Notes: generated by a model from the sequence alone, not told the origin. Counted from the first letter of the stretch, positions 13,100 to 34,355 are shown. The stretch is 64,000 nucleotides of DNA from Gammaproteobacteria bacterium (GCA_004297335.1 SCUD01000069.1:39611-103610); one strand, 5' to 3'. Numbers and translations are program-made.

Positions 13100-13129
13100 C
13101 AGGTCACCGTCGGCGCCAGCGCGCTGGGT

Positions 13130-13792: not shown

Positions 13793-13825
13793 CAGCGCGT
13801 CTCCTCGTTGCGATTGCATTCTGAT

Positions 13826-15256: not shown

Positions 15257-15273
15257 GCACTCGGACAGACGCA

Positions 15274-15345: not shown

Positions 15346-15516
15346 GCTCCCGCTGTATCATCGGGCGATAGCATTGTACCGCACATGTTCTGGCCAGGTT
15401 CAGTACGATCATGGACGCTACCGTACACGACTCGTTTCACAGGAGTGACCGGATTCGGTAACGTGACACATTGACCCGCCCGTAGACCCGTGTGGCCCTG
15501 GTAGAGGAACCCGATC

Positions 15517-16065
15517 ATGCAACCGACCGCCTACACCCGGACGGCGATAGCCCTGCACTGGCTTATTGCCGCCCTGATCTTCACGACCTTCCCGCTCGGC
15601 GTGTACATGCACGAGCTGCCGTTGTCACCGACCCGCGTCGAGTTGTATTCGTATCACAAGTGGATCGGGGTCACGATCCTCCTGCTGGCCGTGATCCGCG
15701 TCGCCTGGCGCGCGAGCCATCCGGCACCGCCGCCGGTTGCGGGCACACCGGCCTGGCAGAGGATCACCGCGGCCGCTACCCACCACCTGCTGTACCTGCT
15801 GGTGATCATCATTCCGGTCTCCGGGTGGCTGATGAGCTCGGCCAAGGGCGTGCCGACGGTCTGGCTCGGTCTCGTGCCATTGCCGGACCTCGTCGGGAAG
15901 AACGAGGACCTTGGCGAGCTGCTGGAGGAAGTCCATGAGACCCTCAACTTCCTGCTGCTGCTCCTCGTGGTCGTGCACCTCGTGGGGGCGCTGAAGCACC
16001 GGTTCATCGATCGCGACGAAGTAATGGCCCGGATGCTGCCGTTCCTGGGCTCGCGCAAGCTGTAG
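15517..16065 (+). CDS. cytochrome b561 family protein
   Basis: Four-TM profile with conserved His positions ([34 protein letters not shown]). GAGGAA RBS upstream. Confidence 0.85.
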
Positions 16066-16625
16066 TGAACATGCGCGCCTGGCTGACGAGTGCTGTCCTG
16101 GCGTTACCGGTCCTGGCCCAGGTCGCCTCGGCGCCGCTCGCGCTGGACGCTGCAGGCAGCCGGATTTCGGTCAGGGCCAGCCAGATGGGCGTGCCGATCG
16201 AGGGCGAGTTTCGCCGCATCGAGGCCGAGCTCGACTTCGACCCGGCCAGGCCCGCGGCCGGAAGCGCCCGGGTCCGGATCGAGGTCGGCAGCTTCGACCT
16301 GGGCGACGAGGAATTCAACCGCGAACTGCGGCGTCCGGAGTGGTTCGACGCCGGGCAGCACCCGGTCGCGACCTTCGCGTCGACCGGGATCACTCCTGCC
16401 GGTCCCGGACGCCTGGAAGTGACGGGCCAGCTGACGATCAAGGGCCGCACGGTGGCCGTGACCGTGCCGGTACAGCAGGCCAGCGACGGCAATCAGCAGG
16501 TTCTCGATGGCTCGCTGCCAATCCGCCGCCTGCAGTTCGGCATCGGCAGCGGCGCCTGGGCCGATACCTCGGTCGTTGCCGACGAAGTGGAGATCCGCTT
16601 TCGCCTCGTGGCAGCGGGTTTCTGA
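16065..16625 (+). CDS. YceI family periplasmic protein
   Basis: Signal peptide, then YceI-like beta-barrel sequence ([33 protein letters not shown]). The start overlaps the upstream stop. Confidence 0.8.
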
Positions 16626-17243: not shown

Positions 17244-18617
17244 TCAGCGTTGCGTGCCGGCCTGGTCGGCGCGGTCCGCGGCCAGACTCGCCATTGCCGG
17301 ATGCTGGCCGCCGGCCAGGCCCTCGATGAAGCGCAGGTTGCGATTGACCGTGCCCTGGATGTGCCGGACATCCTCGTCCGCCAGGTGCCTGAACTTGCCG
17401 AGCACCCGCAGGTACTCCGTGATCGCGACCGGGCGCCCGGGGTCCCGACTCAGGCGCAGGCCCTCGCCGGGCGCGAACTCCCACAACAGCACGAAGTTCG
17501 ACTCCACGGCCTTGCGTGCGACTTCCATGTTGTCCTGCGACGGAAACCGCCAGCCGGTCGTGCAGGGCGAGTAGATGTGCAGGTAGGCAAAGCCACGTTT
17601 CGAGGCGTCGATCGCCCGGTCCAGCTTGGCGTAGAGATCTTCCATGAATCCGGTCGAGGCCGTCGCGACGTACTCGCAGTTGTGCATCATCATCAGGACC
17701 GGCAGGTTCTTGGCGTCCTGGGTCTTGCCACGGCCGCGTTCGCCGACCGGGGTCGTCGAGGTCCAGGCGCCGAACGGCGTGCAGCTCGAGCGCTGCATAC
17801 CGGTATTCATGTAGCCCTCGTTGTCGACGCAGATGAAGAGGATCTGCTCACCGCGCTCGGCGGCGCCGGACAGCGACTGGAAACCGACGTCCGCCGCACC
17901 ACCGTCGCCGGCGAGCGCGACCGCGTTCACCTCGCGCCCCAGGCGCCGGTACTGGCGCTTGATGCCGGTCAGCATCGAGGCGGTGTTGGTCAGCAGCGGG
18001 TGAAAGACCGGCACCTTGGTACCGGTCAGGCCGTTGTATCCAACTGCACCCATGCCCGGGATGCAGCCCGGCGGCGTGGCCAGCACGGTGTCCGGACCGA
18101 TGCGGCGCAGCGTGTGTCGCATGACGAGCTCGGTGTTGCAGCCCTGGCATCCCGAGAGCCCCGGGGCAAACAGGTCCTCGAGATCACCAACCTCATTGTA
18201 GATGCGCGCCGTCGTGATATATCGCAACGCACCGGTATCGCAGACCTTTACGCAAGCCGGATCGCCGTCGCAGGTGTCGCACTTGACCACGTGCCTTTCC
18301 GCCGCGTTATAGACGATGCCGCCGTAGGCGCAGCCCACGGTGCACAGCAGGCAGTTGACGCACTTGCTGCCATCCCAGGCGATGACCCCATCGTCGCCGT
18401 GCTTGTCCAGCGCGGCCGCCGGGCAGCTGGCCACGCACTTCGGATCGGCGCACTGGCGGCACAGCGCCAGCGCATACGAGCCGTCGTCCGCGGCGATCTG
18501 GATCCGGGAATTGGCCGGATCCGCGCTGCCGGTCTTGACGCTGGCGCAGCTGCGCATGCAATCGCCGCAGCCATTGCAGAGTTCTGGGCGGAAGGCGATG
18601 GTGTTGTAGGCCGGCAT
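17244..18617 (-). CDS. 2-oxoacid:ferredoxin oxidoreductase beta (TPP-binding) subunit with an N-terminal poly-ferredoxin domain
   Basis: The first ~130 aa carry four CxxCxxC-type clusters (CNGCGDCMRSC, CRQCADPKCVASCP, CVNCLLCTVGC, CDTCDGDPACVKVC). The TPP-binding beta-subunit motifs follow (GCQGC, ALAGDGGAADVGFQ, CVDNEGYMNTG). Confidence 0.8.
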   Translation of the reverse strand: MPAYNTIAFRPELCNGCGDCMRSCASVKTGSADPANSRIQIAADDGSYALALCRQCADPKCVASCPAAALDKHGDDGVIAWDGSKCVNCLLCTVGCAYGGIVYNAAERHVVKCDTCDGDPACVKVCDTGALRYITTARIYNEVGDLEDLFAPGLSGCQGCNTELVMRHTLRRIGPDTVLATPPGCIPGMGAVGYNGLTGTKVPVFHPLLTNTASMLTGIKRQYRRLGREVNAVALAGDGGAADVGFQSLSGAAERGEQILFICVDNEGYMNTGMQRSSCTPFGAWTSTTPVGERGRGKTQDAKNLPVLMMMHNCEYVATASTGFMEDLYAKLDRAIDASKRGFAYLHIYSPCTTGWRFPSQDNMEVARKAVESNFVLLWEFAPGEGLRLSRDPGRPVAITEYLRVLGKFRHLADEDVRHIQGTVNRNLRFIEGLAGGQHPAMASLAADRADQAGTQR

Positions 18618-18633
18618 GCAGTGCGCCCCCGTT

Positions 18634-19887
18634 TCAGCGCCAGCTGCGCGACATGATGCGGCGCGCGACCGTCTGCGGGTCGGCCAGGAAGGCTGCGCGC
18701 AGCGGTCCCAGGTCGATGCGCCGCAGGATGAGTTCCCACATGATGCCCGGATCGAAGGGCGCGTTGATGCCGAAGATGCCGGTCAACTGGTCCTGTTGCA
18801 TCACGATCTTCAGGTAGCGCGCGCGATCGGCTTCGCGCAGCACCGTCTCGCCGATATCCTGGCGACCGACCGACACCGCCTGCTGGCCGAAGAACGTGTA
18901 GGTGTTGAGCGGTACTCCGCCGGGGTAGGGTCGCAGCGCAGGGTCGCCAGCCATTGCCTGCCCGGCGATGCGGCCCTGTTCGACGGCGTCAGGCAGGATG
19001 CCGTTGATGATCCGCGCCCCGGCATCCGTGCCGTAGAAATCCCGGGCCTGCGCGACGTCGCCGGCCGCCCAGACATTGCCGACACTGGTCTGCATGCGCT
19101 CGTCGACGAGGATCCCGCGATCCGTCGCGATGCCGGAATCGGCGATGCATTCCATCGCGGGCGCGACGCCGGTCGCGACCAGCAGCAGCCCGGCCGTGAG
19201 TTCCGAGCCATCGTCGAGCTGCAGCCGGATGCCGGCGCCATCGGCAGCGACTCCGGCCGCGCGGCGGCCCAGCAGCAGGCGCACGCCGCGGTCCGAGAAC
19301 GCGGACTCGATGATCGCGGCAGCATCCGCATCGAAGTAGCCGGCCAGCACCCGGGGCTGCAATTCCACGAGCGTGACCTGTACGCCCGCCTTCGCGAGGT
19401 TCTCGGCGGCATGCATGCCGATCAGCCCGGCGCCGAGCACCACGGCCTGTTTGACGGATGGCAGCGCGGCGTGCAGGCCGATCGCGTCATCGAGCCGCCG
19501 CAACACGTGGAACTTCACCCCCCGCAGGCCGGGAATCGGCGGCAGCTGTGGCGCCGCGCCGGTCGCCAGCAGCAGCCGCTCGTAGCCGATCAGGGAACCG
19601 TCGTCCAGCCGGAGCTGATTCGCCGTCGCCTCCACGGCGGTGACGGTGCGACCACGGAGCAGTTGGGCCTTCTGCTCCGCAAACCAGGCCTCGTCCTTCA
19701 GCGCTACACGCTCCGGCGCTGAGCGCCCGGACACGACATAGGGAAGTACCGTCGGCGAGTACGGGAGTGCATCGTCGCGCGTGATCATTGCGAGGCTGCC
19801 CTCGGCATCCTGCATGCGAATGGCCCGCAGCGCCTCGAGCCCGGCGTGGCTTGCCCCGACGATCACATAGCGGTTCGGCACCGGCAT
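18634..19887 (-). CDS. FAD-dependent pyridine-nucleotide-disulfide oxidoreductase family protein (ferredoxin/NAD(P) reductase-like)
   Basis: Two dinucleotide-binding motifs (VIVGASHAG and VVLGAGLIGMHAAE) and the distal FAD motif (WAAGDVA). It is inserted between the OFOR alpha and beta genes. Confidence 0.8.
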   Translation of the reverse strand: MPVPNRYVIVGASHAGLEALRAIRMQDAEGSLAMITRDDALPYSPTVLPYVVSGRSAPERVALKDEAWFAEQKAQLLRGRTVTAVEATANQLRLDDGSLIGYERLLLATGAAPQLPPIPGLRGVKFHVLRRLDDAIGLHAALPSVKQAVVLGAGLIGMHAAENLAKAGVQVTLVELQPRVLAGYFDADAAAIIESAFSDRGVRLLLGRRAAGVAADGAGIRLQLDDGSELTAGLLLVATGVAPAMECIADSGIATDRGILVDERMQTSVGNVWAAGDVAQARDFYGTDAGARIINGILPDAVEQGRIAGQAMAGDPALRPYPGGVPLNTYTFFGQQAVSVGRQDIGETVLREADRARYLKIVMQQDQLTGIFGINAPFDPGIMWELILRRIDLGPLRAAFLADPQTVARRIMSRSWR

Positions 19888-19888
19888 T

Positions 19889-21115
19889 TCAGCGGTCCTG
19901 CTCGTTGAGCCAGATCACGGCACCCAGGCCAGAATCGTCGGGCAGCGCACCAACGAGTTCAATCACACGGCCGAAGTGATCCGTCGTGAGATCGGCTCCG
20001 GCGAGCCCGCCGATGAAGCTCTGCGTCGCCGGCCGGCGGCGCGCGCTGTGCAGCGCCGCGATCACGTCCTGGTACAGGGGCCCGCAGTTCCAGCCAAAGC
20101 TCACCGACCGGTCGACGACGCCGATCCGGCTCGCATCGCCGAGAGCCTCGATCAGCGCCGCGACCGGGAACGGGCGGTAGGTCTTGACCCGCACCAGCCC
20201 CACCCGCTCACCACGCGCGCGGGCCTGGTCCACCGCATCCTTCGCGGCACCACTCATCGAGCCGATCGTGACCAGCGCACTCTCGGCGTCCTCCATCCGG
20301 TACGCCTCGACCAGCGCCGCATGCCGGCGTCCGATGAGCCGGGCCCAGTCCTCATGCACTTCAGCGATGATGCCGAGGGCATGCTGCATGGCTGCGCAGT
20401 GGCCCTTGCGATAGCGCACGAACATCGCCGGGCCGGGTCCGCCAGCGCCGCCGGTCAGCGGATCGACGCCCATTGGCCGCTCGGGATCGAGCGCGGCGTG
20501 CCAGTGCACCGCCGGCGGCGGCAGGAAGGCGTCGACGTCCGCCGGCTCGGGCAACTCGACCCGCGTCGCACCATAGGACAGGTAGTTGCCGTCATGACAG
20601 ACGTTGACCGGCAACATCACGCCGCGGTGCTCGGCGATCCGGTAGGCCATGATCGTCGTGTCGAGCACTTCCTGCACGGACTCGCAGTACAGCTGGATCC
20701 AGCCGGTCTCGCGCACGCTCATCGCGTCCTGGTGCCCGCCCCAGACGCTCTGCGGCGTCAGCGTGTCGCGCGTGACAATCGACATCACGATCGGGAGTCG
20801 CAGGCCCGGCGTGCGCAGGTACGGCTCGAACATGAAGGCCAGCCCGGGCCCGCAGGTGCCGGTGTAGGTACGCGCGCCCGCCAGCGCGCCGCCGTGCAGC
20901 ACCGACAGCACCGAATGCTCGCCCTCGACATCGACGATCTCGGCATTCAGCCGCCCGTCGGCCACGAACTTCGCCAGATACTCGACCAGCGAGGACTGCG
21001 GCGTGATCGGGTAGACGGCGACCATGTCCACGTGCGCCAGCGTCACCGCCCAGGCAGCAGCCTCGTTGCCATCGCAGACGATGGCCCGGGGACGCGGCTT
21101 CACCACGGCATTCAC
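19889..21115 (-). CDS. 2-oxoacid:ferredoxin oxidoreductase alpha subunit
   Basis: GNEAAAWAVTLAHVDMVAVYPITPQS is the canonical alpha-subunit N-terminus. The GTG at 21115 overlaps the delta stop (GTGA). The ATG at 21454 would overlap the whole delta gene. Confidence 0.8.
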   Translation of the reverse strand: MNAVVKPRPRAIVCDGNEAAAWAVTLAHVDMVAVYPITPQSSLVEYLAKFVADGRLNAEIVDVEGEHSVLSVLHGGALAGARTYTGTCGPGLAFMFEPYLRTPGLRLPIVMSIVTRDTLTPQSVWGGHQDAMSVRETGWIQLYCESVQEVLDTTIMAYRIAEHRGVMLPVNVCHDGNYLSYGATRVELPEPADVDAFLPPPAVHWHAALDPERPMGVDPLTGGAGGPGPAMFVRYRKGHCAAMQHALGIIAEVHEDWARLIGRRHAALVEAYRMEDAESALVTIGSMSGAAKDAVDQARARGERVGLVRVKTYRPFPVAALIEALGDASRIGVVDRSVSFGWNCGPLYQDVIAALHSARRRPATQSFIGGLAGADLTTDHFGRVIELVGALPDDSGLGAVIWLNEQDR

Positions 21116-21405
21116 GCGCCCTCCTCGATCATCCGGATCGCATGCTGCGGGCATTCGCGGGCGCAGATGCCACAGCCCTTGCAGGTGGCGAGGTTGAAAT
21201 CGAACCAGGCGGGCTTCTCGACCACGCACTGCACCGGGCAGTACAGCCAGCAGACCGCGCACTTGACGCAGCGCTCGCGGTCGATCACCGGCCTCATGCT
21301 CCGCCAGTCCCCTGGCAGCATGGGCGTCAGGCGCGTCGCGATCGGACAGAGATCGTCCGGGATCGTGGAGGCGTCGAACAGCGGCCGGGACTGACGCGTG
21401 GTCAT
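21112..21405 (-). CDS. 2-oxoacid:ferredoxin oxidoreductase delta subunit (2x[4Fe-4S] ferredoxin)
   Basis: 97 aa with CVKCAVCWLYCP and CKGCGICARECP. The ATG at 21405 overlaps the gamma stop (ATGA). Confidence 0.75.
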   Translation of the reverse strand: MTTRQSRPLFDASTIPDDLCPIATRLTPMLPGDWRSMRPVIDRERCVKCAVCWLYCPVQCVVEKPAWFDFNLATCKGCGICARECPQHAIRMIEEGA

Positions 21406-21974
21406 GCCGCGGCGCGCCGGTCGATATGGTGAACGATCGTGGCCGCATGACCACGCTCCAGGGCCCGCAGGTTCTGCTCGAGCCCCGCGTCGCGGAACTC
21501 GGAATCCCGCAGCGCCTCGCGCAGCGAATCCAGCGACACGAGCCCGGTGGTCCTGGCGAAGGCGCCCAGCATCAACGTGTTCGTGATCGACCGGCCGAAG
21601 ATCTCGCGGGCAATCGTCACCGCATCGCACAGCCCGACGGTCGCCACCTGCCCCGGAAACTGCAGCTCCGCGAGCGGCCTGGCGGTCGCCTGGACCCAGG
21701 TGCTGTTGTCGCGGATGCCGTCGAAGATATTGACGGCCCGGCCGACCGTCGGATCGATGCACAACACGCAGTCCGGACGATAGATGTTGGTCATCTGCCG
21801 GATCTCCCGCGAATCCATGCGCAGGAAACTGGTCACCGGGGCGCCGCGGCGCTCGAAGCCGAAGGATGGCACTGCGACGACGTAGTGGCCCTCGTGCACC
21901 ATCGCCGTGGCCAGAATGCTGCCCGCCAGCACGGCACCCTGCCCGCCTCGTCCGTGAATCCGGACCTCATACAT
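21402..21974 (-). CDS. 2-oxoacid:ferredoxin oxidoreductase gamma subunit
   Basis: The N-terminus MYEVRIHGRGGQGAVLAGSILA is the canonical gamma-subunit motif. 190 aa. Confidence 0.8.
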   Translation of the reverse strand: MYEVRIHGRGGQGAVLAGSILATAMVHEGHYVVAVPSFGFERRGAPVTSFLRMDSREIRQMTNIYRPDCVLCIDPTVGRAVNIFDGIRDNSTWVQATARPLAELQFPGQVATVGLCDAVTIAREIFGRSITNTLMLGAFARTTGLVSLDSLREALRDSEFRDAGLEQNLRALERGHAATIVHHIDRRAAA

Positions 21975-21986: not shown

Positions 21987-22424
21987 TCATTCCGGGTTGC
22001 CCTCCTGGCACACCCGCAGGTAGGCCTCCATGCGCTCGCGCAGGTCTGGCGCAAATGGCTGCGGCCGGCCCTGCTGCATGTCGATGCTGACGATCACGAG
22101 GGTCGCCCGCAGCCGCAGCTCCCCGTCCACGCGGCCGTCGAAGCGCAGCCGGTACGAGGTGCGGCCAACCGCTTCCAGGACCAGCTCGAAACCGATGACG
22201 TCACCGAGGCGGCACGGGCGCAGGAAGTCGCACTCGATGTGGGCGGTCGGGAACCCGGTGCGAGTGGTCAGGATGCGCTGGGCGTACGGGATTCCGAGGC
22301 AGTTGCTGAACCAGTCCTCGACCGCTGCCTGGAACATCTCGAAGAAGCGCGGGAAGAACACGTACCCGGCCGGATCCGTGTGCGTGAACCGCACCAGCTC
22401 CTGATGTACGTAGCGGCCTTGCAT
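21987..22424 (-). CDS. hotdog-fold acyl-CoA thioesterase (4HBT/YbgC-like)
   Basis: 145 aa. VRFTHTDPAGYVFFPRFFEMFQAA matches the 4HBT-type catalytic N-terminal region. Confidence 0.7.
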   Translation of the reverse strand: MQGRYVHQELVRFTHTDPAGYVFFPRFFEMFQAAVEDWFSNCLGIPYAQRILTTRTGFPTAHIECDFLRPCRLGDVIGFELVLEAVGRTSYRLRFDGRVDGELRLRATLVIVSIDMQQGRPQPFAPDLRERMEAYLRVCQEGNPE

Positions 22425-22444: not shown

Positions 22445-22732
22445 TCAGGCCCGGAAGTGCGACGGTACGTCGCCCGAGAAGTCCTCGTCCGGGCTCAGCT
22501 GCCGCGCGCGCGCGAGCAGTTCAGCCTCACCCTCGACCCGGTCGGGATCCTGGATGCAGCACTCCTGCGGGCACACAGCGGCGCATTGCGGCTCGTCGAA
22601 GAAGCCGACGCACTCCGTGCACTTGGCCGGGTCAATGCGATGGATGGTCGGACCGGCGGTGATCGCCTCGTTGGGGCACTCCGCAGTACAGGCGTCACAC
22701 TGGTCGCAGCTGCTGGTGATGATGTATGCCAT
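22445..22732 (-). CDS. fdx: 2[4Fe-4S] ferredoxin, Alvin-type (Cx2Cx8Cx3CP second cluster, C-terminal extension)
   Basis: CDQCDACTAECP plus CTECVGFFDEPQCAAVCP, with a ~35 aa C-terminal tail. The ferredoxin that donates electrons to Thauera benzoyl-CoA reductase has the same architecture. Confidence 0.85.
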   Translation of the reverse strand: MAYIITSSCDQCDACTAECPNEAITAGPTIHRIDPAKCTECVGFFDEPQCAAVCPQECCIQDPDRVEGEAELLARARQLSPDEDFSGDVPSHFRA

Positions 22733-23612
22733 TTTCCTCGTCCTCCTTCAGGCCATGAATTGCCGCGCCGATCGCGCCGCAGTACTGCGCGTTCGGAGCC
22801 AGAATCGTCTTAATGTCCCCGAACCGCTCGGCGAACAGCGGCACGAGGATCGGGTGGTAGTTCATCACGCCCCCGGAGAATACCAGCGTATCGGTCGAAA
22901 TCGCGGTCATCTCCAGCACGCGCTTGACCACCGAACGGTACAGGGCGTAGATCAGGTTCTCGACCCGCTCCCCATGCATCAGGAGCTTGATGACCTCCTG
23001 CCCGGAAAATACCGTGCAATAACTGTTGAGCGTCAGCTCCCGGTCATGCCCGGCGGCCAGCCCCGGCAGCGACTGCATCGGCACCTCGAGCCGATGGGCC
23101 AGCTCCTCGATGTAGGCGCCGGTGCCAGCGGCACACTTGCGGTTGATCGCGAACTGGTCGACACGCCCCGGCGTTGCGCGGATCACCTTGGCATCCTGGC
23201 CGCCGATGTCAATGATCGTGTAGTCGCGATCGAGCTGCAACTGGTGCTGCACGCCCAGGAAGTGCGCCTTGATCTCGGTCAACTGGCCGTGGATGCCCTC
23301 GATGTGGCTGCGCCCGTAGCCAGTCGCATGAATCTGCTGCCCGGGCAGGAGCCTCGGCACGCCTCCGACCGGCGCGCCCGGCACGCGCTCATCGTCGACC
23401 AGCGGCGACAGCTCCCCGGTGCCGCCAGCCAGCGCGCGGTGCACATGCCCGGCGAGCGGGAACAGCGTGCGCTGCTTGCGCAGCAGCAGCACCCGGCCGC
23501 CGCGGTCCACGGCCGCCACCTTGATTTCCGAGCTGCCACAATCGACGCCCCAGAAGGTGGTGACGGCCGGCCCGGCCGCGGCAACCGGCGGATCGAGGGC
23601 GGCGGCGATCAC
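22695..23612 (-). CDS. BcrAD/BadFG/HgdC family ATPase (radical-enzyme activator)
   Basis: ASKHA motifs are present (GVDCGSSEIKVA, DIGGQDAKVI, NRKCAAGTGAYIEE, with the cluster-bridging Cys context). The GTG at 23612 overlaps the upstream stop (GTGA). The 3' end overlaps the ferredoxin start by 38 nt. Confidence 0.8.
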   Translation of the reverse strand: MIAAALDPPVAAAGPAVTTFWGVDCGSSEIKVAAVDRGGRVLLLRKQRTLFPLAGHVHRALAGGTGELSPLVDDERVPGAPVGGVPRLLPGQQIHATGYGRSHIEGIHGQLTEIKAHFLGVQHQLQLDRDYTIIDIGGQDAKVIRATPGRVDQFAINRKCAAGTGAYIEELAHRLEVPMQSLPGLAAGHDRELTLNSYCTVFSGQEVIKLLMHGERVENLIYALYRSVVKRVLEMTAISTDTLVFSGGVMNYHPILVPLFAERFGDIKTILAPNAQYCGAIGAAIHGLKEDEENGIHHHQQLRPV

Positions 23613-24793
23613 AGCGTCTCCACGAAGGCTTCGATCACGGTCGTGGACTGCTCGTCGGAGAAGCAACGCAGGTCGTTGAGGTCGCCGTCAATAACGACGC
23701 CCGGCAGCCCCTGCGCGCGCAGGCGTTCCGGCATCCCGTAGTGGCTGTTGGTATTGTTGGGGCAGGTTCGTGCCGCGTGGTAGACGATGCCGTCGATGCC
23801 GAACTGCCCGGCGAGGCGCAGCAGGTATGCCTCCTTGCACGCGTCGTCGCGGTTGATGAAGATCCGAGTATAGGCACGCGCCATGCTCGGGAGCGGCTGC
23901 CGGGGATCGAAGTCGGAAAAGATCCAGCTGTTGCAGTAGGTCGAGGCCACGACGGCCGCGCGATTGCGCTGGAACACCTCCGACAGGTGCCGCAGGCGCC
24001 CCCAGACCGGCATGCCCTCCCAGTAGATCCGCTTGCGCTCGCCAGGCACGGCAGCGGTCGCGGCGGCCACCCGGTCCTGCATCTCCGCCAGCAGCGCCCG
24101 GTAGTAATCGACCGCGATCTCCGTGCCGCGCAGCACGACGATCGGCCCCATGTAGATCGCCCCATCGAAGAAGCTGAGCGGGCTCGGCCGGGCAGTCCCG
24201 GTATTCAGCACCTCTTCCCACAGGTCAGTCGCCTCGCGCGAGCGCGCCACGGCCCGCTCGAGCTCCGCCGGATCGAGTTTCCGCCCGCTGATCGCCTCGA
24301 GCTGGACAATCAGGTGACGATACTGGGCGACGACATCGGCGACGTGCTCGGGGCGGACCTCGGCTACGTGCGTCGGCGGATGAATGCCCAGCAGCGGCAC
24401 CGACCAGCGACGGGCATACCAGCCGAACCAGTGCATCACATCCTTGCACTGGTTCGTGCAGTAGACCAGCACATCCGGCCGTGGCGCCTCCTCGAGGCCG
24501 TAGGCCTTGGTCAGCGGCGTCACGCCCTTGAGACAGGCACCGACATCGGAGGTCAGGTAGCTGCAGATCTCGGGCGAATAGCCATGGGCGTTGGCGACCG
24601 GAATCGTCTCGCTGCTCATTCGCGTCGCGCCGAGCAGCGCGCCGTGGTTCTCGGGGAAATAGACCGCGAAGCCCAGTGCGCGCAGGATCTCGGCCGGGCC
24701 GACCGAGGTGCACCAGGCGACCTTGCGGGCAGGATCGCGCGACGCCGCGCCGAGGTCGGCGAAGTAGTCGCGCATCACCTGCTTCAGGTCCAC
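23609..24793 (-). CDS. solitary 2-hydroxyacyl-CoA dehydratase / BcrB-BcrC family protein
   Basis: 394 aa. Family hallmarks: VAWCTSVGPAEILRALGFAVYFPENH, SPEICSYLTSDVGAC, VLVYCTNQCKDVMHW. No second dehydratase-type subunit lies next to it. Confidence 0.75.
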   Translation of the reverse strand: MDLKQVMRDYFADLGAASRDPARKVAWCTSVGPAEILRALGFAVYFPENHGALLGATRMSSETIPVANAHGYSPEICSYLTSDVGACLKGVTPLTKAYGLEEAPRPDVLVYCTNQCKDVMHWFGWYARRWSVPLLGIHPPTHVAEVRPEHVADVVAQYRHLIVQLEAISGRKLDPAELERAVARSREATDLWEEVLNTGTARPSPLSFFDGAIYMGPIVVLRGTEIAVDYYRALLAEMQDRVAAATAAVPGERKRIYWEGMPVWGRLRHLSEVFQRNRAAVVASTYCNSWIFSDFDPRQPLPSMARAYTRIFINRDDACKEAYLLRLAGQFGIDGIVYHAARTCPNNTNSHYGMPERLRAQGLPGVVIDGDLNDLRCFSDEQSTTVIEAFVETL

Positions 24794-24795: not shown

Positions 24796-25797
24796 CTACA
24801 CCCCGAGGCGCCGCAGCGACCGGTGGATGAACACGCCGATCATCTTCTTGCGATAGTCTCGCGGGAAGAAGTCCTGCTGGTAGGTGGTCGCGAATTTCCC
24901 GGCCCTGGCGCAGGCCTTGGCGACTACCTTTGACAGGCTCGCCCCGTCGGCGATCGCGTGCCGCCAGCAGCCGGGGTGGGTGCCGAGCCCGGTCAGTGCG
25001 ACCGACAACTCGAGCGGCTGGCCCGCAGCATCGCGGCGCACGCCGACCGCCACGCCGAGCGACGGGAAATCCAGCGCATTGCGCACCGCGAGCTTGTCGT
25101 AGTCGACCTGGAGGCCGGTCGCCGGCGGTATCTCGATCCAGCCGATGACCTCGCCCGGCCGCAGCACGTTACGCTCCATGCCGTCGTTCCGGTAGAAGCG
25201 GCGCAGCGGCACCCGTCGCTCGCCGCGGCCGCGCAACAGCACGAGCCTCGCCTCCAGCAACAACAGCACCGGTGCCGTGTCGGACACGAAGCGCGCCTGG
25301 CACTGCGGCAGCTGTCCACGCACCGCACTCTTGACGATATGGCACACGTCCCCGTCGACCTTGAAGCAGGGCGCGTGGACCGTCCGGTTCAAGGGACTCT
25401 GGTTGACGTAGATGCAGCGGTTATTGACCAGCAGGTTGCCACCGAGCGTCGCGCGGTTGCGGATCTGCGGGCTGGCGACCCGCCCGGCGGCGGCTGCGAG
25501 CGCCGGCTGATGCTGGCGCACCAGCGTACTGTCCACCAGGTCCGCGAGCCGCGTCAGGGCGCCGATCCGCAGCGTACCGTCGTCCTGGACCGCAATGCCA
25601 GCGAGCTCGCCCACGCCATTGAGCGATACCAGCACCTCCGGTGCCACCAGCCGCTGCTTCAGCTGCGGCATCAGGTCGGTGCCGCCCGCGGCGACGGCAA
25701 AGCGCCGTTGTTCGCGGCCCAGGCGCGTGAGCAGTGCCCGCAGCGCCGGCAGCCCGGCCGGCCGTTCGAACTCGAATCCGCTGAGTTGCGTGTTCAT
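24796..25797 (-). CDS. hcrB: molybdenum-hydroxylase FAD-binding subunit, 4-hydroxybenzoyl-CoA reductase beta-like (with 4-Cys insertion)
   Basis: CoxM/XDH FAD-binding domain (AAGGTDLMPQLK, RNRATLGGNL). A ~45 aa insertion carries four Cys (NNRCIY, HAPCFK, GDVCHIV, LPQCQA). Confidence 0.75.
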   Translation of the reverse strand: MNTQLSGFEFERPAGLPALRALLTRLGREQRRFAVAAGGTDLMPQLKQRLVAPEVLVSLNGVGELAGIAVQDDGTLRIGALTRLADLVDSTLVRQHQPALAAAAGRVASPQIRNRATLGGNLLVNNRCIYVNQSPLNRTVHAPCFKVDGDVCHIVKSAVRGQLPQCQARFVSDTAPVLLLLEARLVLLRGRGERRVPLRRFYRNDGMERNVLRPGEVIGWIEIPPATGLQVDYDKLAVRNALDFPSLGVAVGVRRDAAGQPLELSVALTGLGTHPGCWRHAIADGASLSKVVAKACARAGKFATTYQQDFFPRDYRKKMIGVFIHRSLRRLGV

Positions 25798-28178
25798 GCC
25801 GCACCTGCCTTGCGGATGGCGGCCAGGACCCGGTCGGGTCGCATCGGTACCTCCGTCAATCGTATGCCCACCGCGTCATGGATCGCATTGGCGATGGCCG
25901 GGATGATCGGCGCCAGCGGACCCTCGCCCGCCTCCTTGGCGCCGAAGGGACCCTCGGTCTCGTCACTCGGCGTCGGCACCAGGTCGACCTCCGGCTGCTC
26001 GAAGGCCGACGGGATCTTGTACTCGAGGAAACCGGCATTTTGCACGGCCCCGTCGTAGTGCACGATCTCCTCCATCAGCGCCTGGCCGAGGCCCATGTGG
26101 ATGCAGCCCTCGATCTGGCCCCGCACCGCGAGCGGATTCAGCATCGTGCCGCAGTCGTGGGCGCAGGTGGCCTTGTCGACCTTCACGAACCCGGTCTCCG
26201 GATCCACGGTGACTTCGACGATGAAGGCCGTGAAGCTGTAGGTCGGACTCAGTCCCGCCGCCGCGCCCTTGTAGTTGCCGCCGAGCTTTGGCGAGCGATA
26301 GGTCCCATGGGTCTGCAGGATGCCGGGCCCATCGAGCGCGCGGCGAACGGCATCGAGATACGGGACGCTGCGTCCGCTCCCCAGGTGCGTGACCTGGCCA
26401 TTGGCCAGGCGGAAACCGTCGTTGTAGTCCGGATTCGGGCCGAGATAGTCGGACGAGTAGTCCGGGCTGCGGCGCCCCTGGCGGAAGTAGTCCGCCGGCG
26501 GCTCCGGCTTTTCCCACGCCGGTGGCGGGAGCTCCAGCAACTGGCACGCGGCCGCAACCAGCAACCGCCGCATGCGGATGGCCGCATTGCGCGAGGCATT
26601 GCCGGCCATGAAGGTCACGCGCGAGCTGTAGCTACCGAGATCCACCGGGGTCAGCTGGGTGTCGGCGACGACGACCTTGACCTGGTCCAGGCCGACGCCG
26701 AGGACCTCGGCCGCCATCATCGCCAGGATCGTGTCGATGCCCTGGCCGATATCGGCGGCGCCCGAATACACGGTCACCATGCCGTCGAACTCGATCGTCA
26801 GGCGCACCGTACTGGATGGCCGGTCGTTGCGGTGGATGTGCGCAGCGCTGCCGCTGATATAGAAGCCGCAGGCGACGCCAATACCCTTGCCGTAGGGCAG
26901 CTTGCCGTACTTCTCGTTCCAGCCCGAACGCCGCATCGCCTCCTCGAGGCCGGCCTTCAGGCCGACCGAGGTGATCCGGAACTCGCTGGCGGTCAGCGTG
27001 TTGGGCCGGTGGATCATGTCAATCCGGCCCTGGCAGGGATCGACTCCCGCCTGGACCAGGGCCATGTCGAGCAGCACCTCGGCGGCGAAGCGCGGATTGA
27101 CGCCACCGTGACCGCGCATCGCGCCGCACATCGGCTTGTTCGTATACACGCGCCGCGAGCGGAAGCGCAGGTTCTCGATCCGGTAAGGGCCCTGCAGCAG
27201 CACGCCGTTGTAGTAGGTGGTCACGACGCCGAAGCTGCCGTAGGCGCCGCCGTCGATCAGGATATCGGCATCGATCCCGGTGATACCCTGCTGCGGATCA
27301 TAGCCAAGCTTCATCGTCAGCGTGGTCGGGTGACGACCGTGATGACTGATGAACACTTCCTCGCGGCTGAAGCGCAGGCGGATGTTGCGATTGGTCTGCA
27401 GCGCCAGCCGGGCGGCGATCATCTCGTGCGGGAACGGATCGCTCTTGCCGCCGAAGCCGCCACCCAGGTGCGGCTTGATCACGCGGATCCGGTGCTCGGG
27501 GATCTCCAGCACCTCGGCCATCGCCATGTGCAGGTAATGCGGCACCTGAGTCGCGCTGTATACGGTCAGATTGCCGCGCCCGTCGATCGCGACCTGGGTC
27601 GCGTGCGGCTCGGTGAACGCATGCGTCACCGAGGCGAAGGAAAAGCGCTTCTCGACCACGACCGGCGAGGCCGCGAATCCCGCATCGGGATCGCCGTAGC
27701 ATTGCTCGACCCGCTTGTGCAGGTTGTTGTCACGCCCGAGGCCCGGATGCAGCGGCTCGGCCACCGGCTTCAGTGCCACGCGCGGATCCAGGCAGGCCTC
27801 GGTCGGCTCGTAGCTGACCTCGATCAGGGCGAGCGCGGCCGCGGCGATTTCGGCGGTCTCCGCCGCCACGGCGGCCACCGGCTCGCCGATGTAGCGGACG
27901 CGGTTGCCGGCCATGGCCGGCTCGTCCTTGCTGATGACCAGCACACCGAAGGTCCGGCGGAAGTCGGCTCCAGTGACGATACCACGCACCCCGGGCAGGG
28001 CTGCGGCCCGGCTCGTATCCACCTTCAGGATCCGGGCGCTCGCGAACGGGGAGCGCAGGATCGCTGCGTGCAGCGGATTGTGCAGCGGTATGTCATCCGT
28101 GAAGCGCGCCCGGCCCATGACCTTGTCGCGGGAGTCGATCTGCGGCGTCGGCTTGCCGACGATGTTGTAGCCGCTCAT
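25794..28178 (-). CDS. hcrA: molybdopterin-binding large subunit of an XDH-family enzyme, 4-hydroxybenzoyl-CoA reductase alpha-like
   Basis: 794 aa. The N-terminus (VGKPTPQIDSRDKVMGRARFTDD) and internal blocks (GGGFGGK, CGAMRGHG, GAKEAGEGP) are typical aldehyde-oxidase/XDH Mo-subunit motifs. Confidence 0.8.
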   Translation of the reverse strand: MSGYNIVGKPTPQIDSRDKVMGRARFTDDIPLHNPLHAAILRSPFASARILKVDTSRAAALPGVRGIVTGADFRRTFGVLVISKDEPAMAGNRVRYIGEPVAAVAAETAEIAAAALALIEVSYEPTEACLDPRVALKPVAEPLHPGLGRDNNLHKRVEQCYGDPDAGFAASPVVVEKRFSFASVTHAFTEPHATQVAIDGRGNLTVYSATQVPHYLHMAMAEVLEIPEHRIRVIKPHLGGGFGGKSDPFPHEMIAARLALQTNRNIRLRFSREEVFISHHGRHPTTLTMKLGYDPQQGITGIDADILIDGGAYGSFGVVTTYYNGVLLQGPYRIENLRFRSRRVYTNKPMCGAMRGHGGVNPRFAAEVLLDMALVQAGVDPCQGRIDMIHRPNTLTASEFRITSVGLKAGLEEAMRRSGWNEKYGKLPYGKGIGVACGFYISGSAAHIHRNDRPSSTVRLTIEFDGMVTVYSGAADIGQGIDTILAMMAAEVLGVGLDQVKVVVADTQLTPVDLGSYSSRVTFMAGNASRNAAIRMRRLLVAAACQLLELPPPAWEKPEPPADYFRQGRRSPDYSSDYLGPNPDYNDGFRLANGQVTHLGSGRSVPYLDAVRRALDGPGILQTHGTYRSPKLGGNYKGAAAGLSPTYSFTAFIVEVTVDPETGFVKVDKATCAHDCGTMLNPLAVRGQIEGCIHMGLGQALMEEIVHYDGAVQNAGFLEYKIPSAFEQPEVDLVPTPSDETEGPFGAKEAGEGPLAPIIPAIANAIHDAVGIRLTEVPMRPDRVLAAIRKAGAA

Positions 28179-28714
28179 TGCGCGCCCGCCTTGCCGCCAC
28201 CGGCAGCCAGCGTGGCAGCCGTAGTCACGAACGCCTGCTCAATGCGGTTGTAGCCGGTGCAGCGGCACACGGTTGCGGAGATACAGGTCCGGATCTCGTC
28301 CCGGGTCGGCGTCGGCGTGCGCTCGAACAGGTGCACGCCGTTGATCACCATGCCCGGCGTGCAGAACCCGCACTGGATCGCGCCTTCGTCGACCATGGCC
28401 TGCTGCAGCGGATGCAGCACTTCTCCATCGGCAATACCCTCGATGGTCCGGATCTCGCTGCCCTCGACGTCGGCCGCGAGCAGCAGGCAGGCCAGCATCG
28501 GGCGACCGTCCACCAGGACACTGCAGCAACCGCACTCGCCAAGATCGCAGCCACGCTTGCTGCCGGTCAGGCCCAGCTCCTCGCGCAGGAACTCGAGCAG
28601 TGTGGTGCCAGGCTTCGCGATGGCCTGCTGCAGGACCCCATTGACGCGCAGGGCCAGCACCCGGGCGTCATTCACCCCGTGCTCGCGCGGCTGCGCCGGA
28701 TTCGATGTATTCAT
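28175..28714 (-). CDS. hcrC: 2x[2Fe-2S] small subunit of an XDH-family enzyme, 4-hydroxybenzoyl-CoA reductase gamma-like
   Basis: GCDLGECGCCSV and CGFCTPGM...CRCTGY motifs. An AGGAAGG RBS lies before the ATG at 28714. The longer ORF from 28912 is rejected. Confidence 0.85.
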   Translation of the reverse strand: MNTSNPAQPREHGVNDARVLALRVNGVLQQAIAKPGTTLLEFLREELGLTGSKRGCDLGECGCCSVLVDGRPMLACLLLAADVEGSEIRTIEGIADGEVLHPLQQAMVDEGAIQCGFCTPGMVINGVHLFERTPTPTRDEIRTCISATVCRCTGYNRIEQAFVTTAATLAAGGGKAGAQ

Positions 28715-28778: not shown

Positions 28779-30788
28779 CTACCGGCCGGTAAACTGCGGC
28801 CGGGTCCCATCGAGCACGCTCGACAGTCCGGCCAGAGCGTCCGCGGTCGAGAACAGCGCTGTCGCGCCATCGAGTTCCAGGCGCAAGGCAGCAGCGAGAT
28901 CCATTGTGGCACCCTGATCCATCAGGCGCATTGCCGCGCGCAGCGCGAGCGGCGCCTTGCGCGCCAGGTCGCGCGCCCAGGGCTTGAGTGCCGGCGCAGC
29001 GAGCGCCTGCTCGTCATTGGCGCCATCGTAACCGGCGAAGGCCTGCTCGATCTCCGGCTGCGGCTTCCGCCCCGCCTGGCTGGCACCCAGTTCGATGCCG
29101 GCCAGTTCCTCGAGATGCCGGACCGGCTCCACGATCCGGTCGACCACACCGAATGCCAGCGCCTGCGCCGCATCGAGCCGGCGGCCCGTGGCCACCAGGT
29201 ACTTGGCAACCCCGAGGCCCAGGAGGCGCGTCGTCCGCTGGGTCCCACCGAGACCCGGGAAGATGCCGATGCCGGTCTCCGGCAGCGCGAGCATCGTGTT
29301 GCGCGTGCCCAGGCGGTAGCGGCAGGCGAGTGCGAGTTCCAGGCCACCGCCGAGCGCCATGCCGTCGAGCCAGGCACAGGTGGGCTTGCTGCAGGCCTCG
29401 ATGCGCGCCAGCAGTTCATGGCCGCGGGCCGTGAAACGGTACACGCGGTCCAGGTCGCCCGAGTGAATCGAATCGACAAAGAAGCGGATGTCGGCTCCGG
29501 CCACGAAGGCCTTGCCGCGACCCGCAAAGAAGATCCGCCGGACCCGCGGATCTGACTCGACACGATTCCACGCCGCCTCGAGCTGGCCCATGACGATCTC
29601 GCCGAGCGGATTCATCCGGTCGGGCAGGTTGAAGATCACGAAGCCGGCATCCCCGTGCACGGCGCTCTGTACCCACTCGAGTTGCGGTTCTCCCGGCTGC
29701 GCGAACGGCACGGCCGGCAGCGGCAGCTTCCAGGGTGCATACAGCTCCCGGATCATGGCTGCGACATTGTCCTTGCCGAGCGCAGCCATCAGCTCGAAGG
29801 GACCGCGCGGCCAGCGCAGCCCGGCCCGCGCGCCCAGATCCGTGGACGTTGCGTCCGCGACACCCTCGCTGACCAGCTGCGCGGCACAGCCGAGCGATGC
29901 CGCCAGCAGGCGCCGGCGCACGACCTCCGGCTGGAACTGGCCGCCACCTGGAATCTGGCGATCCTCGACGTCCCACTCCTTGCCACTCGCCACCTGCCGG
30001 CACAGCGTCGCAGCGGGCGCGTAGAACGGACCCAGCTTGCTGGCCAGGCCCTCGGCGCCGTGCTGCGCAATCGGTACGCCCGTTGCGTTCATCAGCGCGA
30101 ACGGCCCCATGCCGACGCCAAAAACCTCCCGGCCAACTGCATCGATCTCGTGGATGCTGCCGAACCCCTCCTCGAGGAGCCGCACGGCCTCGTTGATCCA
30201 GGGGATGAAGAAGCGGTTCACGGCAAACCCGGCGGAGTCTGCGGTGCGGATCGGGGTCTTGCCCAGTTCCGAGTAGAAACCCTCCAGCTCGCGCAGCAGT
30301 TCCCGGTCCGTCCGCGGCGCGGCAACCACTTCGATCAGCTTGTTCTTTGCAGCATGGTAGAAGTAATGCGTACCGACGACCCGCTCCGGATGGGCGAGGC
30401 CTTCGGCCACGTCGCCGACCCGGAAGGAAGAGGTATTCGTGGCCAGCACACAGTCCGGGCCCACGATCGGCTCGAGGCGCCGGAACAGGTCGCGCTTGAC
30501 GGCCAGGTCCTCGAACACGGCCTCGACCACCAGGTCCGTGCCGGCGAGTTCCGCCAGGTCCGAGACCGGACGCAGGCGCGCGAGGATCGCGGCCCGCCCG
30601 GCCGCATCCATCAGCCCGCGCTCGACTGCTTCGTCCAGCGACGCGGCGATCAACCGCTGCCCGCGCTCGAGACCCGCGGCGTTGGCGTCCAGCAGCGCCA
30701 CCTTCAGGCCCTTCATCAGGAAGTGCTGGGAGATGGCTGCACCCATCGTGCCGGCACCAACCACCGCAATATTCCGGAACTCACGCAT
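28779..30788 (-). CDS. bifunctional 3-hydroxyacyl-CoA dehydrogenase (N-terminal) / crotonase (C-terminal) fusion
   Basis: N-terminal VAVVGAGTMGAAISQHF (HAD Rossmann fold). C-terminal KAFVAGADI and GMALGGGLELALACRYR (crotonase). The ATG at 30788 shares its A with the upstream TGA (TGATG). Confidence 0.8.
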   Translation of the reverse strand: MREFRNIAVVGAGTMGAAISQHFLMKGLKVALLDANAAGLERGQRLIAASLDEAVERGLMDAAGRAAILARLRPVSDLAELAGTDLVVEAVFEDLAVKRDLFRRLEPIVGPDCVLATNTSSFRVGDVAEGLAHPERVVGTHYFYHAAKNKLIEVVAAPRTDRELLRELEGFYSELGKTPIRTADSAGFAVNRFFIPWINEAVRLLEEGFGSIHEIDAVGREVFGVGMGPFALMNATGVPIAQHGAEGLASKLGPFYAPAATLCRQVASGKEWDVEDRQIPGGGQFQPEVVRRRLLAASLGCAAQLVSEGVADATSTDLGARAGLRWPRGPFELMAALGKDNVAAMIRELYAPWKLPLPAVPFAQPGEPQLEWVQSAVHGDAGFVIFNLPDRMNPLGEIVMGQLEAAWNRVESDPRVRRIFFAGRGKAFVAGADIRFFVDSIHSGDLDRVYRFTARGHELLARIEACSKPTCAWLDGMALGGGLELALACRYRLGTRNTMLALPETGIGIFPGLGGTQRTTRLLGLGVAKYLVATGRRLDAAQALAFGVVDRIVEPVRHLEELAGIELGASQAGRKPQPEIEQAFAGYDGANDEQALAAPALKPWARDLARKAPLALRAAMRLMDQGATMDLAAALRLELDGATALFSTADALAGLSSVLDGTRPQFTGR

Positions 30789-34344: not shown

Positions 34345-34355
34345 GTCAATTCTCC

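Follow-up and report, generated by a model that had tools for sequence, protein, structure and literature searches.

A solitary HadB/BcrB-like protein and its HgdC-type ATPase in a benzoyl-CoA reductase operon: a proposed homomeric 2-hydroxyacyl-CoA dehydratase

Introduction

The described systems closest to the one presented here are the 2-hydroxyacyl-CoA dehydratases HadBC/HadI of Clostridioides difficile (3o3m/3o3n, 4eht), HgdAB/HgdC, FldBC/FldI and LcdAB. To our knowledge, all characterised members of this 'archerase' superfamily that convert CoA esters are heteromers, while the known homomeric members are the double-cubane cluster proteins (DCCPs), for which we know of no physiological substrate. 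In this work we analyse a 64,000-nucleotide stretch of DNA from a Gammaproteobacteria bacterium (GCA_004297335.1 SCUD01000069.1:39611-103610; 68% G+C), called the window below, with positions counted from its first letter. It encodes a 394-residue member of the HGD-D family that stands alone, followed by a 305-residue ATPase. We propose, with moderate confidence, that the 394-residue protein is a homomeric, ATP-activated ketyl-radical enzyme of the 2-hydroxyacyl-CoA dehydratase type and that the 305-residue protein is its HgdC-type activator.

A preliminary description of this DNA started from the premise that the known members of the superfamily use two different large subunits. That premise is outdated, because DCCPs are proven homodimers with their own ATPase (PMC7317905, PMC11971306). 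Six ligands of the DCCP [8Fe-9S] cluster are supplied by a 7-Cys motif, CX19CX18-19CX29CX166-170CX32-34CX32C (PMC7317905). The same description likened the pair to YjiL/YjiM of E. coli. YjiM has been assigned to the DCCPs by its sequence motif by the Dobbek group (PMC7317905) and so belongs to a lineage different from that of the 394-residue protein, which reaches 56.7 bits against a cutoff of 350 with the DCCP model NF040772 (residues 154-394 alone match) and has an incomplete 7-Cys motif. In the class I benzoyl-CoA reductases (BCRs), the cluster ligands of the catalytic subunit BzdO are Cys95, Cys128 and Cys380, and Glu65 is the glutamate of a P-E motif (PMC11971306).

Results

A predicted catalytic-type subunit

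The 394-residue protein matches PF06050 (HGD-D, IPR010327) at 1.5e-64, with residues 31-394 covering profile positions 3-342. Its best solved relative by sequence is the HadB alpha subunit (3o3m_A; 4.8e-48, and 1.3e-57 in a profile search), followed by MbdO and BzdO, with DCCP and the beta/N-type subunits far more distant. An AlphaFold2 model (mean predicted local distance difference test score 87.4) was compared with solved structures by Foldseek. The template modelling (TM) scores were 0.89-0.90 for HadB, 0.88 for MbdO and BzdO, 0.77 for DCCP and 0.69-0.73 for HadC, BzdN and MbdN, so that the modelled fold is nearer to the alpha/O than to the beta/N subunits. The NCBIfam equivalog scores all lie far under their cutoffs, e.g. 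206 against 750 bits for HadB (NF052455) and 122 against 487 bits for BcrB. An exact-sequence look-up of the protein returned no record.

An alignment of 75 family members contains five invariant cysteines: C28, C77, C116, C287 and C344. Three of these (C77, C116 and C344) match, in the alignment, the three positions at which HadB and BzdO bind their catalytic [4Fe-4S] cluster. Also invariant is P47-E48, the counterpart of the BzdO Glu65 motif, which is common to HadB, MbdO and BcrB and absent from BcrC, BzdN and DCCP. With its HadB-like modelled fold and with the three cluster cysteines and the P-E motif kept, the protein is predicted to be a catalytic (alpha/B/O-type) subunit. The equivalent of BzdO His131 is V119, so this histidine is not conserved.

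The remaining two invariant cysteines, C28 and C287, fall within one alignment position of distal-cubane [8Fe-9S] ligands of DCCP and BzdN (BzdN Cys36 and Cys263; motif positions C1 and C5). The third distal-cubane ligand (BzdN Cys293; motif position C6) has no counterpart in the alignment of the 394-residue protein. In the wider family, sampled by 99 full-length representatives, C287 nearly always occurs together with C28 (10 of 11 cases) and is limited to representatives that are at least about 41% identical to the query, bar one 38%-identical member with Ser at position 28. C28 and C287 could be extra ligands, a dithiol or the leftover of a lost sub-cluster. A further candidate, C377, was considered as a sixth double-cubane ligand. 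It is invariant in alignments of 17 and of 52 sequences, but across the family it is present in 58 of the 75 members and is replaced by Leu or Met in the other 17; neither C188 nor C280 consistently makes up for its absence, and C377 was rejected.

A widespread solitary family with a dedicated activase

With one genome taken per species, the family was found at more than 573 loci, with identities of 57-78%. The matches listed come from Gamma- and Alphaproteobacteria, Desulfobacterota, Geobacter, Myxococcota, Chloroflexota, Elusimicrobia, Planctomycetota, Thermoplasmatota and Asgard archaea, and the closest among them are uncultured 'Gammaproteobacteria' metagenome-assembled genomes (77-78% identity). 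In the 75 aligned members 113 residues are conserved at a level of at least 97%.

The gene had been described as solitary and this is borne out. A second dehydratase-type subunit was sought beside it, and no adjacent open reading frame (ORF) of the HGD-D type was found in the window or, by phmmer with four diverse HGD-D queries (E<1e-3), in 85 related loci. Within about 10 kb, 80 of these 85 loci have no other HGD-D-type ORF at all; of the remaining five, four carry genuine BcrC/BcrB genes that belong to BCR clusters and one a distant BcrC-like ORF.

Elsewhere in the window, tblastn with the 394-residue protein finds just BcrB and a third HGD-D paralog (428 residues; 51136-52422, minus strand). 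The latter lies inside a cluster at 48897-54563, with family-III CoA-transferases on its flanks (48897-50126 and a fused 714-residue gene at 52419-54563), a TRAP-transporter DctP-like binding protein nearby at about 50105-51100 and no activase beside it. Asn replaces its C344-equivalent cysteine. Pairing of the 394-residue protein with this paralog was therefore rejected: the cluster is a different one (CoA-transferases, TRAP) and the C344-equivalent is lost. The layout of the paralog cluster resembles that of BzS1_26180-26210 in a 2026 paper on a benzene degrader, which mentions a solitary FldB-like gene and a CoA-transferase/dehydratase cluster and characterises neither (PMC13416013).

Neighbouring genes were counted within 9 kb at the 49 loci that have at least 5 kb of sequence on both sides (the well-flanked loci). 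Of the 49, 48 have an activase, 33 an ApbA-like gene, 30 a ligase, 18 a 3-hydroxyacyl-CoA dehydrogenase/enoyl-CoA hydratase (HAD/ECH) gene and 7 a gene of the Hcr or xanthine dehydrogenase (XDH) type, i.e. HcrA-like, which leaves about 42 with none of that type. Clustering of the neighbouring genes at 82 loci places an ADP-forming acyl-CoA synthetase (ACD) directly downstream in 36 and a thiolase in 31. Enoyl-CoA hydratases, Zn-alcohol dehydrogenases, the IOR alpha subunit, PaaK, aldehyde:ferredoxin oxidoreductase and ACT-domain proteins follow at 6-13 loci each. IOR alpha and PaaK (7-8 loci) were counted as hints of aromatic 2-oxo acids, and at one locus (L004) an aminotransferase gene directly follows the activase. 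Most family loci have fermenter-type contexts (thiolase, ACD, enoyl-CoA hydratase) and no aromatic-ring enzymes. The family is thus widespread, strongly conserved, always solitary and nearly always accompanied by an activase.

Its steady partner is the ApbA/ketopantoate-reductase-like enzyme, and not the molybdenum enzyme encoded next to it in the window. ApbA::HGD-D fusions occur in three cluster representatives, P0122 (728 residues, 51% identity), P0124 and P0135, and a ligase is fused to ApbA at locus L088. These fusions indicate that ligase, ApbA and HGD-D form a functional triad. In P0124 (603 residues) and P0135 (768 residues) the three cluster cysteines are replaced by Ser, Gly or Thr, so their HGD-D domain is probably non-redox; the two may have branched off from the family into a structural or regulatory role.

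The activase and the ferredoxin

The 305-residue ATPase matches PF01869 (BcrAD_BadFG) at 1.5e-30 and TIGR00241 with 148 bits (cutoff 125), and aligns with HgdC (1hux, 1.4e-32) and HadI (4eht, 1e-29). Both bridging-cluster cysteines are kept, in the motifs NRKCAAGTG and NSYCTVF. As it is encoded by a single gene, the ATPase is presumably a homodimer that bridges one [4Fe-4S] cluster. Its N-terminal third fits the HgdC profiles poorly; a Gly/Pro/Ala-rich insertion at residues ~45-95 separates its phosphate-1 motif, GVDCGSSEIK, from the conserved core. Activase orthologs are 244 to 305 residues long.

A ferredoxin gene follows, which had been taken to be the pair's own. We rejected this idea of a private ferredoxin: the gene is adjacent only in the closest relatives (L001, L018, L089) and in just 2 of the 49 well-flanked loci, so it is not specific to the pair. 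The ferredoxin is probably shared, as a donor of low-potential electrons, by the activase, the Hcr-like enzyme and the BCR.

The operon

The pair belongs to a single long operon on the minus strand, in which neighbouring genes are -38 to +64 nucleotides (nt) apart. Its features, with those that border it, are as follows.

38192-38953: TetR-family regulator gene, upstream of BcrC
33502-38250, minus: BcrCBAD, a complete Thauera-type class I BCR at the operon head, in the order BcrC, BcrB, BcrA, BcrD
37030-38250, minus: BcrC of this set, identified by NCBIfam and co-transcribed in this window
31708-33477, minus: AMP-forming acyl-CoA ligase, 589 residues (PF00501 and PF23562)
30788-31711, minus: ApbA/PanE (ketopantoate-reductase-like) NAD(P)H oxidoreductase (TIGR00745, 148 bits)
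28779-30806, minus: HAD/ECH fusion, 675 residues, in the conserved core block
28175-28714, minus: HcrC-like subunit of the Hcr-type molybdenum enzyme (24796-28714)
25794-28178, minus: HcrA-like subunit (1rm6_A, 1.6e-171)
24796-25797, minus: HcrB-like subunit (1rm6_B, 4.8e-47)
23609-24793, minus: solitary HGD-D protein of predicted catalytic type, HadB/BcrB-like, 394 residues (PF06050, 1.5e-64)
22695-23612, minus: HgdC/HadI-type activating ATPase, 305 residues (TIGR00241, 148 bits)
22445-22732, minus: YfhL/Alvin-type 2[4Fe-4S] ferredoxin, 95 residues (NF033683, 99 bits; cutoff 86)
21987-22424, minus: thioesterase
17244-21974, minus: five-gene 2-oxoacid:acceptor oxidoreductase (OFOR), comprising gamma (21402-21974), delta (21112-21405), alpha (19889-21115), FAD/NAD oxidoreductase (18634-19887) and beta fused to a Fer4 domain (17244-18617)

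The tight packing reported earlier was confirmed at each junction. The TAG stop codon of the hcrB-like gene is followed by CA and then by the GTG start of the 394-residue ORF, a gap of 2 nt. The TGA stop of this ORF shares the letters GTGA with the GTG start of the ATPase, which from 23612 gives 305 residues, and the same 4-nt overlap is seen in orthologs. The end of the ATPase gene (22695) and the start of the ferredoxin gene (22732) overlap by 38 nt. A real solitary member of the superfamily and a dedicated HgdC-type ATPase do sit in a tightly packed operon with an Hcr-type molybdenum enzyme, a low-potential ferredoxin and an OFOR.

In the BcrCBAD set the genes are separated by -16 to +24 nt; TIGR02263, TIGR02260 and TIGR02261 score over their cutoffs and TIGR02259 reaches 554 bits against 578. 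Of the OFOR subunits, one is a separate FAD/NAD(P) pyridine-nucleotide-disulfide oxidoreductase and another, beta, is fused to a ferredoxin domain, a composition that we take to resemble that of phenylglyoxylate:NAD+ oxidoreductase, PadEFGHI. The closest relatives L001 and L089 have a two-gene KorAB-like OFOR in place of the five-gene type.

Beyond the OFOR come a cytochrome b561 gene (15517-16065) and an ORF (16065-16625), both on the plus strand. These separate the OFOR from a corrinoid-dependent O-demethylase-like gene set with C1-tetrahydrofolate genes, which lies just over 2 kb downstream at 3888-15256, mostly on the minus strand.

13826-15256: methylenetetrahydrofolate reductase (MTHFR)
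13130-13819: B12-binding corrinoid protein
10597-12522: RACo-type reductive activator
9688-10578: pterin-binding methyltransferase
8516-9691: amidohydrolase
7642-8502: FolD
6308-7645: URO-D-family methyltransferase
4953-6311, plus: major facilitator superfamily (MFS) transporter
3888-4865: second ApbA-like gene

Such a set is unusual for a high-GC proteobacterial aromatic island and suggests methoxylated aromatic acids as substrates. On the other side of the operon, a divergent plus-strand cluster at 39839-44221 holds a short-chain dehydrogenase/reductase (SDR), a 3-hydroxyacyl-CoA dehydrogenase (40617-41549), an SSF-family symporter (41500-43050) and a beta-keto-acid cleavage enzyme (BKACE, 43280-44221).

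A facultative link to the Hcr-like enzyme

The neighbouring molybdenum enzyme is of the 4-hydroxybenzoyl-CoA reductase (4-HBCR) type, and all four cysteines of its HcrB-specific [4Fe-4S] insertion align with 1rm6_B. None of its subunits reaches the NCBIfam equivalog cutoff: alpha has 791 bits where 995 are required, beta 212 of 405 and gamma 160 of 258. The enzyme belongs to a separate clade with at least 58% identity inside and HcrA-like subunits of 790-830 residues; a sharp break divides it from canonical HcrA-like proteins, which have 760-785 residues and at most 55% identity. Compared with HcrA of Thauera aromatica, the HcrA-like subunit carries an insertion of ~55 residues (~550-604) that is rich in Pro, Asp and Tyr. 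The 4-Cys insertion is kept in loci of the window type and in L079.

In all nine window-type loci the hcrB-like and HGD-D genes adjoin, with a 2-nt gap or an overlap of 4-10 nt. Seen from the Hcr side, the picture is a different one. Six contexts were sampled (L087, L088, L089, L090, L091 and the P0352 locus). ApbA, HGD-D and activase are all present at L088 and L089, whereas HGD-D and activase are absent from the other four; three of these four also have no ApbA, and the ligase is then directly followed by HAD/ECH. The core block common to the Hcr-side and HGD-D-side loci is ligase-HAD/ECH-thiolase-SDR-(thiolase)-HcrCAB-like. In such blocks ApbA and the pair vary together: at least 8 loci have both and 3 have neither, a single locus has ApbA without the pair, and none has the pair without ApbA. 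It follows that the Hcr-like enzyme does not need the pair, and that the partner of the pair is ApbA. The preliminary description had tied the pair to the hcr genes; the link is facultative in both directions, and the partner that co-varies and is found fused is the ApbA-like reductase.

XDH-family enzymes do stand beside the family in four arrangements: the window type, L079 (an Hcr-type enzyme), and L046 and L086 (generic XDH types without the Cys insertion). At L086, positions 8001-16157 form a compact cluster in which an ApbA::HGD-D fusion and its activase are directly followed by the three subunits (small, medium, large) of the XDH-family enzyme; XdhC and a MobA-like gene complete it, and neither a ligase nor a beta-oxidation gene lies nearby. 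Here the family is associated independently with an enzyme of the Mo hydroxylase type. The recurrence in other arrangements makes a pathway-level link to (hetero)aromatic acids likely.

Discussion

Proposed function

The comparisons above establish that the protein belongs to the family, stands alone, has a dedicated activase, is linked to ApbA and ligase and does not depend on Hcr. The parts of the system would match four functions of the classical pathways, namely a 2-oxoacid reductase, CoA activation, a dehydratase and its activator, and on the strength of this match we propose a homomeric dehydratase. The match comes from our own comparison with 2-hydroxyacyl-CoA dehydratase pathways. Of the two roles put forward in the preliminary description, a separate ketyl-radical step on a CoA ester is the one that fits the evidence. 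From that first interpretation the solitary member, the dedicated ATPase, the operon and the ketyl-radical option are retained; electron injection into the Hcr-like enzyme, the two-subunit premise and the likeness to YjiL/YjiM are not.

We infer a homodimer, dehydratase chemistry and an aromatic substrate, and the mechanism might then run as follows. The 394-residue protein would presumably form an alpha2 dimer. Reduced ferredoxin, regenerated by the downstream OFOR, would give one electron to the bridging [4Fe-4S] cluster of the activator, and ATP hydrolysis would push this electron onto the C77/C116/C344 cluster. There the thioester carbonyl of a bound (R)-2-hydroxyacyl-CoA would be reduced to a ketyl radical, the alpha-hydroxyl expelled, the beta-proton removed and the electron returned, leaving an enoyl-CoA. 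To make the substrate, the ApbA-like reductase would turn a 2-oxo acid into a 2-hydroxy acid and the CoA ligase would activate it, and the product would pass to the HAD/ECH fusion and then to a thiolase encoded outside the window.

The likeliest substrate in this operon would be an aryl-lactyl-CoA. The pathway may start with 4-hydroxyphenylpyruvate, reduced to 4-hydroxyphenyllactate and converted to its CoA ester; 4-hydroxyphenyllactyl-CoA would then give 4-coumaroyl-CoA and, further on, 4-hydroxybenzoyl-CoA, which the Hcr-like enzyme would dehydroxylate to benzoyl-CoA for dearomatisation by BcrCBAD. This route is suggested by the Hcr-type enzyme and BCR in the operon, by IOR and PaaK elsewhere and by the aminotransferase at L004. 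Loci that have the core block alone would handle ready enoyl precursors, e.g. 4-coumarate. We also considered 2-hydroxyglutarate and lactate as universal substrates; these fit the contexts with thiolase, ACD and carboxyltransferase, but not the aromatic operon of a denitrifier.

A number of points weigh against the proposal. No beta subunit was found, and an alpha2 enzyme would have to store or receive the electron without one. C28 and C287 sit at double-cubane distal ligand positions, which in HadB and BzdO are substrate space (PMC11971306); were they to bind metal, a CoA ester might not fit. The score with the HadB equivalog model is far under its cutoff. A 2-oxoacid reductase (ApbA/PanE-type) and ligases are linked to the family throughout, but they are not the enzyme types of the characterised dehydratase pathways, and the ApbA-like enzyme could just as well be reducing a CoA ester at a keto group. 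The 57-60% identity across domains of life suggests one common substrate, which is hard to fit with a substrate specific to aromatic degraders. The 64-kb window contains no thiolase. The recurrent XDH-family neighbours hint at a link closer than a shared pathway. Finally, our literature search found no publication on this HGD-D family; in the one paper that names both HgdB and 4-HBCR, hgdAB is mislabelled.

Alternative explanations

The main rival, which we regard as unlikely yet worth weighing, is an ATP-dependent reductase. Here the homomer would use activase-energised electrons stoichiometrically on a hydroxylated aroyl- or heteroaroyl-CoA, and ApbA would reduce the keto tautomer of the product at the expense of NAD(P)H. 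The reaction could be a reductive dehydroxylation or dearomatisation, e.g. at the meta-OH of 3-hydroxybenzoyl-CoA after Hcr has acted on protocatechuyl-CoA, or a reductive removal of the alpha-OH. BCR catalytic subunits are nearly as close in fold as HadB, with TM scores of 0.88 for MbdO and BzdO, and the ferredoxin and OFOR of the operon could supply stoichiometric electrons. The ApbA::HGD-D fusion would fit a product-to-substrate relation in either order, XDH/Hcr-type enzymes accompany the family in four arrangements, and the downstream O-demethylase set suggests vanillate-type substrates that yield dihydroxybenzoyl-CoA. C28 and C287 could serve as a redox-active dithiol or as extra cluster ligands. 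However, there is a single HgdC-type ATPase gene, where the known class I BCRs have two different ATPase subunits in a stable complex; the sequence is nearer to HadB than to BcrB or BzdO; V119 stands in place of BzdO His131; and the fermenter-type contexts of most family loci have no aromatic-ring enzymes.

The family might also be viewed from the side of evolution. It is conceivable, though we would not lean on it, that the family is a living intermediate between double-cubane homodimers and the heterodimeric dehydratases and BCRs: a homodimer with a catalytic [4Fe-4S] cluster plus a remnant of the distal sub-site, C28/C287, carrying out ATP-driven reductive chemistry on CoA esters. The remnant would provide extra metal ligands or a redox-active dithiol, and one type of subunit would perform alpha-dehydroxylation or dearomatisation of a phenolic acyl-CoA together with the fused or adjacent NAD(P)H ketoreductase. 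We know of no characterised member of the superfamily with this type of reaction.

The other role put forward in the preliminary description, an electron-injection module in which activase and HGD-D pump electrons below the ferredoxin potential into the [4Fe-4S] cluster of the HcrB-like subunit, is improbable. In its favour are the adjacency of the hcrB-like and HGD-D genes in nine of nine window-type loci, the 4-Cys [4Fe-4S] entry site kept in the HcrB-like subunit and the clade-specific HcrA-like insertion of ~55 residues. Yet the same Hcr-like clade and upstream block occur without the pair in four of the six contexts, and about 42 of the 49 well-flanked loci have the pair but no Hcr/XDH gene (7 have one), while the protein keeps 57-60% identity and its 113 conserved residues. 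The fused and co-varying partner, ApbA, is a hydride-transfer enzyme, which makes no sense for an electron relay, and the features kept are those of a catalytic subunit rather than of the electron-storing beta/N subunits. The 4-HBCR of T. aromatica runs on reduced ferredoxin alone, which also counts against this reading.

Slightly less credible still is a DCCP-like protein, with a double-cubane cluster or a variant of it, that reduces a small molecule or a non-CoA substrate in the manner of CHY_0487 or YjiM. The gene architecture is the same as that of DCCP/DCCP-R, one large subunit and one ATPase (PMC7317905, PMC9351452), and C28/C287, which occur together in 10 of 11 cases among the 99 representatives, lie within one residue of the distal ligands C1/C5. 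Against this, C6 (BzdN Cys293) and the seventh motif cysteine are absent, the substitute C377 is present in just 58 of 75 members, the DCCP model gives 56.7 bits against 350, the TM score is 0.77 compared with 0.90 for HadB, the P-E motif invariant here is absent from DCCP and BzdN, and the neighbourhood is full of CoA-ester enzymes.

That the protein is not truly solitary and pairs with a distant beta-type subunit, such as the co-transcribed BcrC (37030-38250) or a gene elsewhere in the genome, is the least plausible explanation of all, as BcrC already belongs to a complete BcrCBAD set, 80 of the 85 loci have no other HGD-D-type ORF within ~10 kb and most have no BCR, and the single-gene state is conserved from Proteobacteria to Asgard archaea.

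Implications

The family draws its interest from how widely it occurs and how well it is conserved, from a simple architecture of two genes and from the pair of invariant cysteines found where double-cubane proteins have cluster ligands. It would be a catalytic-type member, which we infer to be homomeric, in a clear metabolic context of reductase, ligases and beta-oxidation. Such an assignment would correct many 'benzoyl-CoA reductase subunit' annotations, which are used as metagenome markers of anaerobic aromatic degradation. It would also define a new route from 2-oxo and 2-hydroxy acids, possibly derived from tyrosine or phenylalanine, into beta-oxidation and the benzoyl-CoA pathway. Furthermore, the family would offer a simple two-gene system for studying ATP-coupled electron activation and would be a test of the proposed evolution from double-cubane proteins to dehydratases and BCRs (PMC11971306).

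Comparison with known systems

With HadBC/HadI the system shares the fold of the alpha (substrate-binding) subunit, at a TM score of 0.90 and 30% identity to HadB, as well as a separate one-gene HgdC-type ATPase with both bridging-cluster cysteines; its genes are also linked to those of a putative 2-oxo/2-hydroxy-acid reductase, of CoA activation and of beta-oxidation. It differs in that no HadC/HgdB-type beta subunit, as found in HadBC and HgdAB, is encoded nearby in the 85 loci, and in the two extra invariant cysteines, C28 and C287. The reductase partner is ApbA/PanE-type and not a D-2-hydroxyacid dehydrogenase of the LdhA/HgdH type, and AMP- and ADP-forming ligases take the place of the CoA-transferase. 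The hosts are denitrifier-type Proteobacteria, Desulfobacterota, Chloroflexota and Archaea, whereas those of HadBC-type systems are amino-acid-fermenting Firmicutes.

The layout of one large-subunit gene and one ATPase gene is that of DCCP/DCCP-R from Carboxydothermus hydrogenoformans (CHY_0487/0488; 6eno, 7yyl) and of YjiM/YjiL of E. coli, a predicted class II member. Set against the DCCP motif, however, the protein has cysteines at C1, C3, C4, C5 and C7, with C2 and C6 absent and C377 not universal; it carries the catalytic P-E motif, and in sequence and fold it is much nearer to HadB and BcrB. The channels of DCCP are too narrow for CoA esters (PMC7317905), whereas the neighbourhood here is rich in CoA-ester enzymes.

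The class I BCRs (BcrCBAD, BzdNOPQ, MbdONQP; 8s02, 9g87/9gai) resemble the protein through their catalytic subunits BcrB, BzdO and MbdO (TM 0.88) and through ATP-driven electron activation, and MbdO also carries a cysteine at the C28 position. As heterotetramers, they contain an N/C subunit that bears [8Fe-9S] and two distinct ATPase subunits, compared with one large-subunit gene and one ATPase gene here; the 394-residue protein scores below the BcrB and BzdO cutoffs, does not conserve BzdO His131 and has a true BcrCBAD in the same operon. As for HcrCAB of T. aromatica (1rm6), the neighbouring enzyme shares its three-subunit XDH-family layout and 4-Cys [4Fe-4S] insertion, but belongs to a separate clade, has the ~55-residue alpha insertion and is embedded in the ligase-HAD/ECH-thiolase-SDR block.

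In summary, the system is not a BCR: it would be like HadBC/HadI in its working, though without the two-subunit feature, and like the DCCPs in its gene layout, though without the 7-Cys motif.

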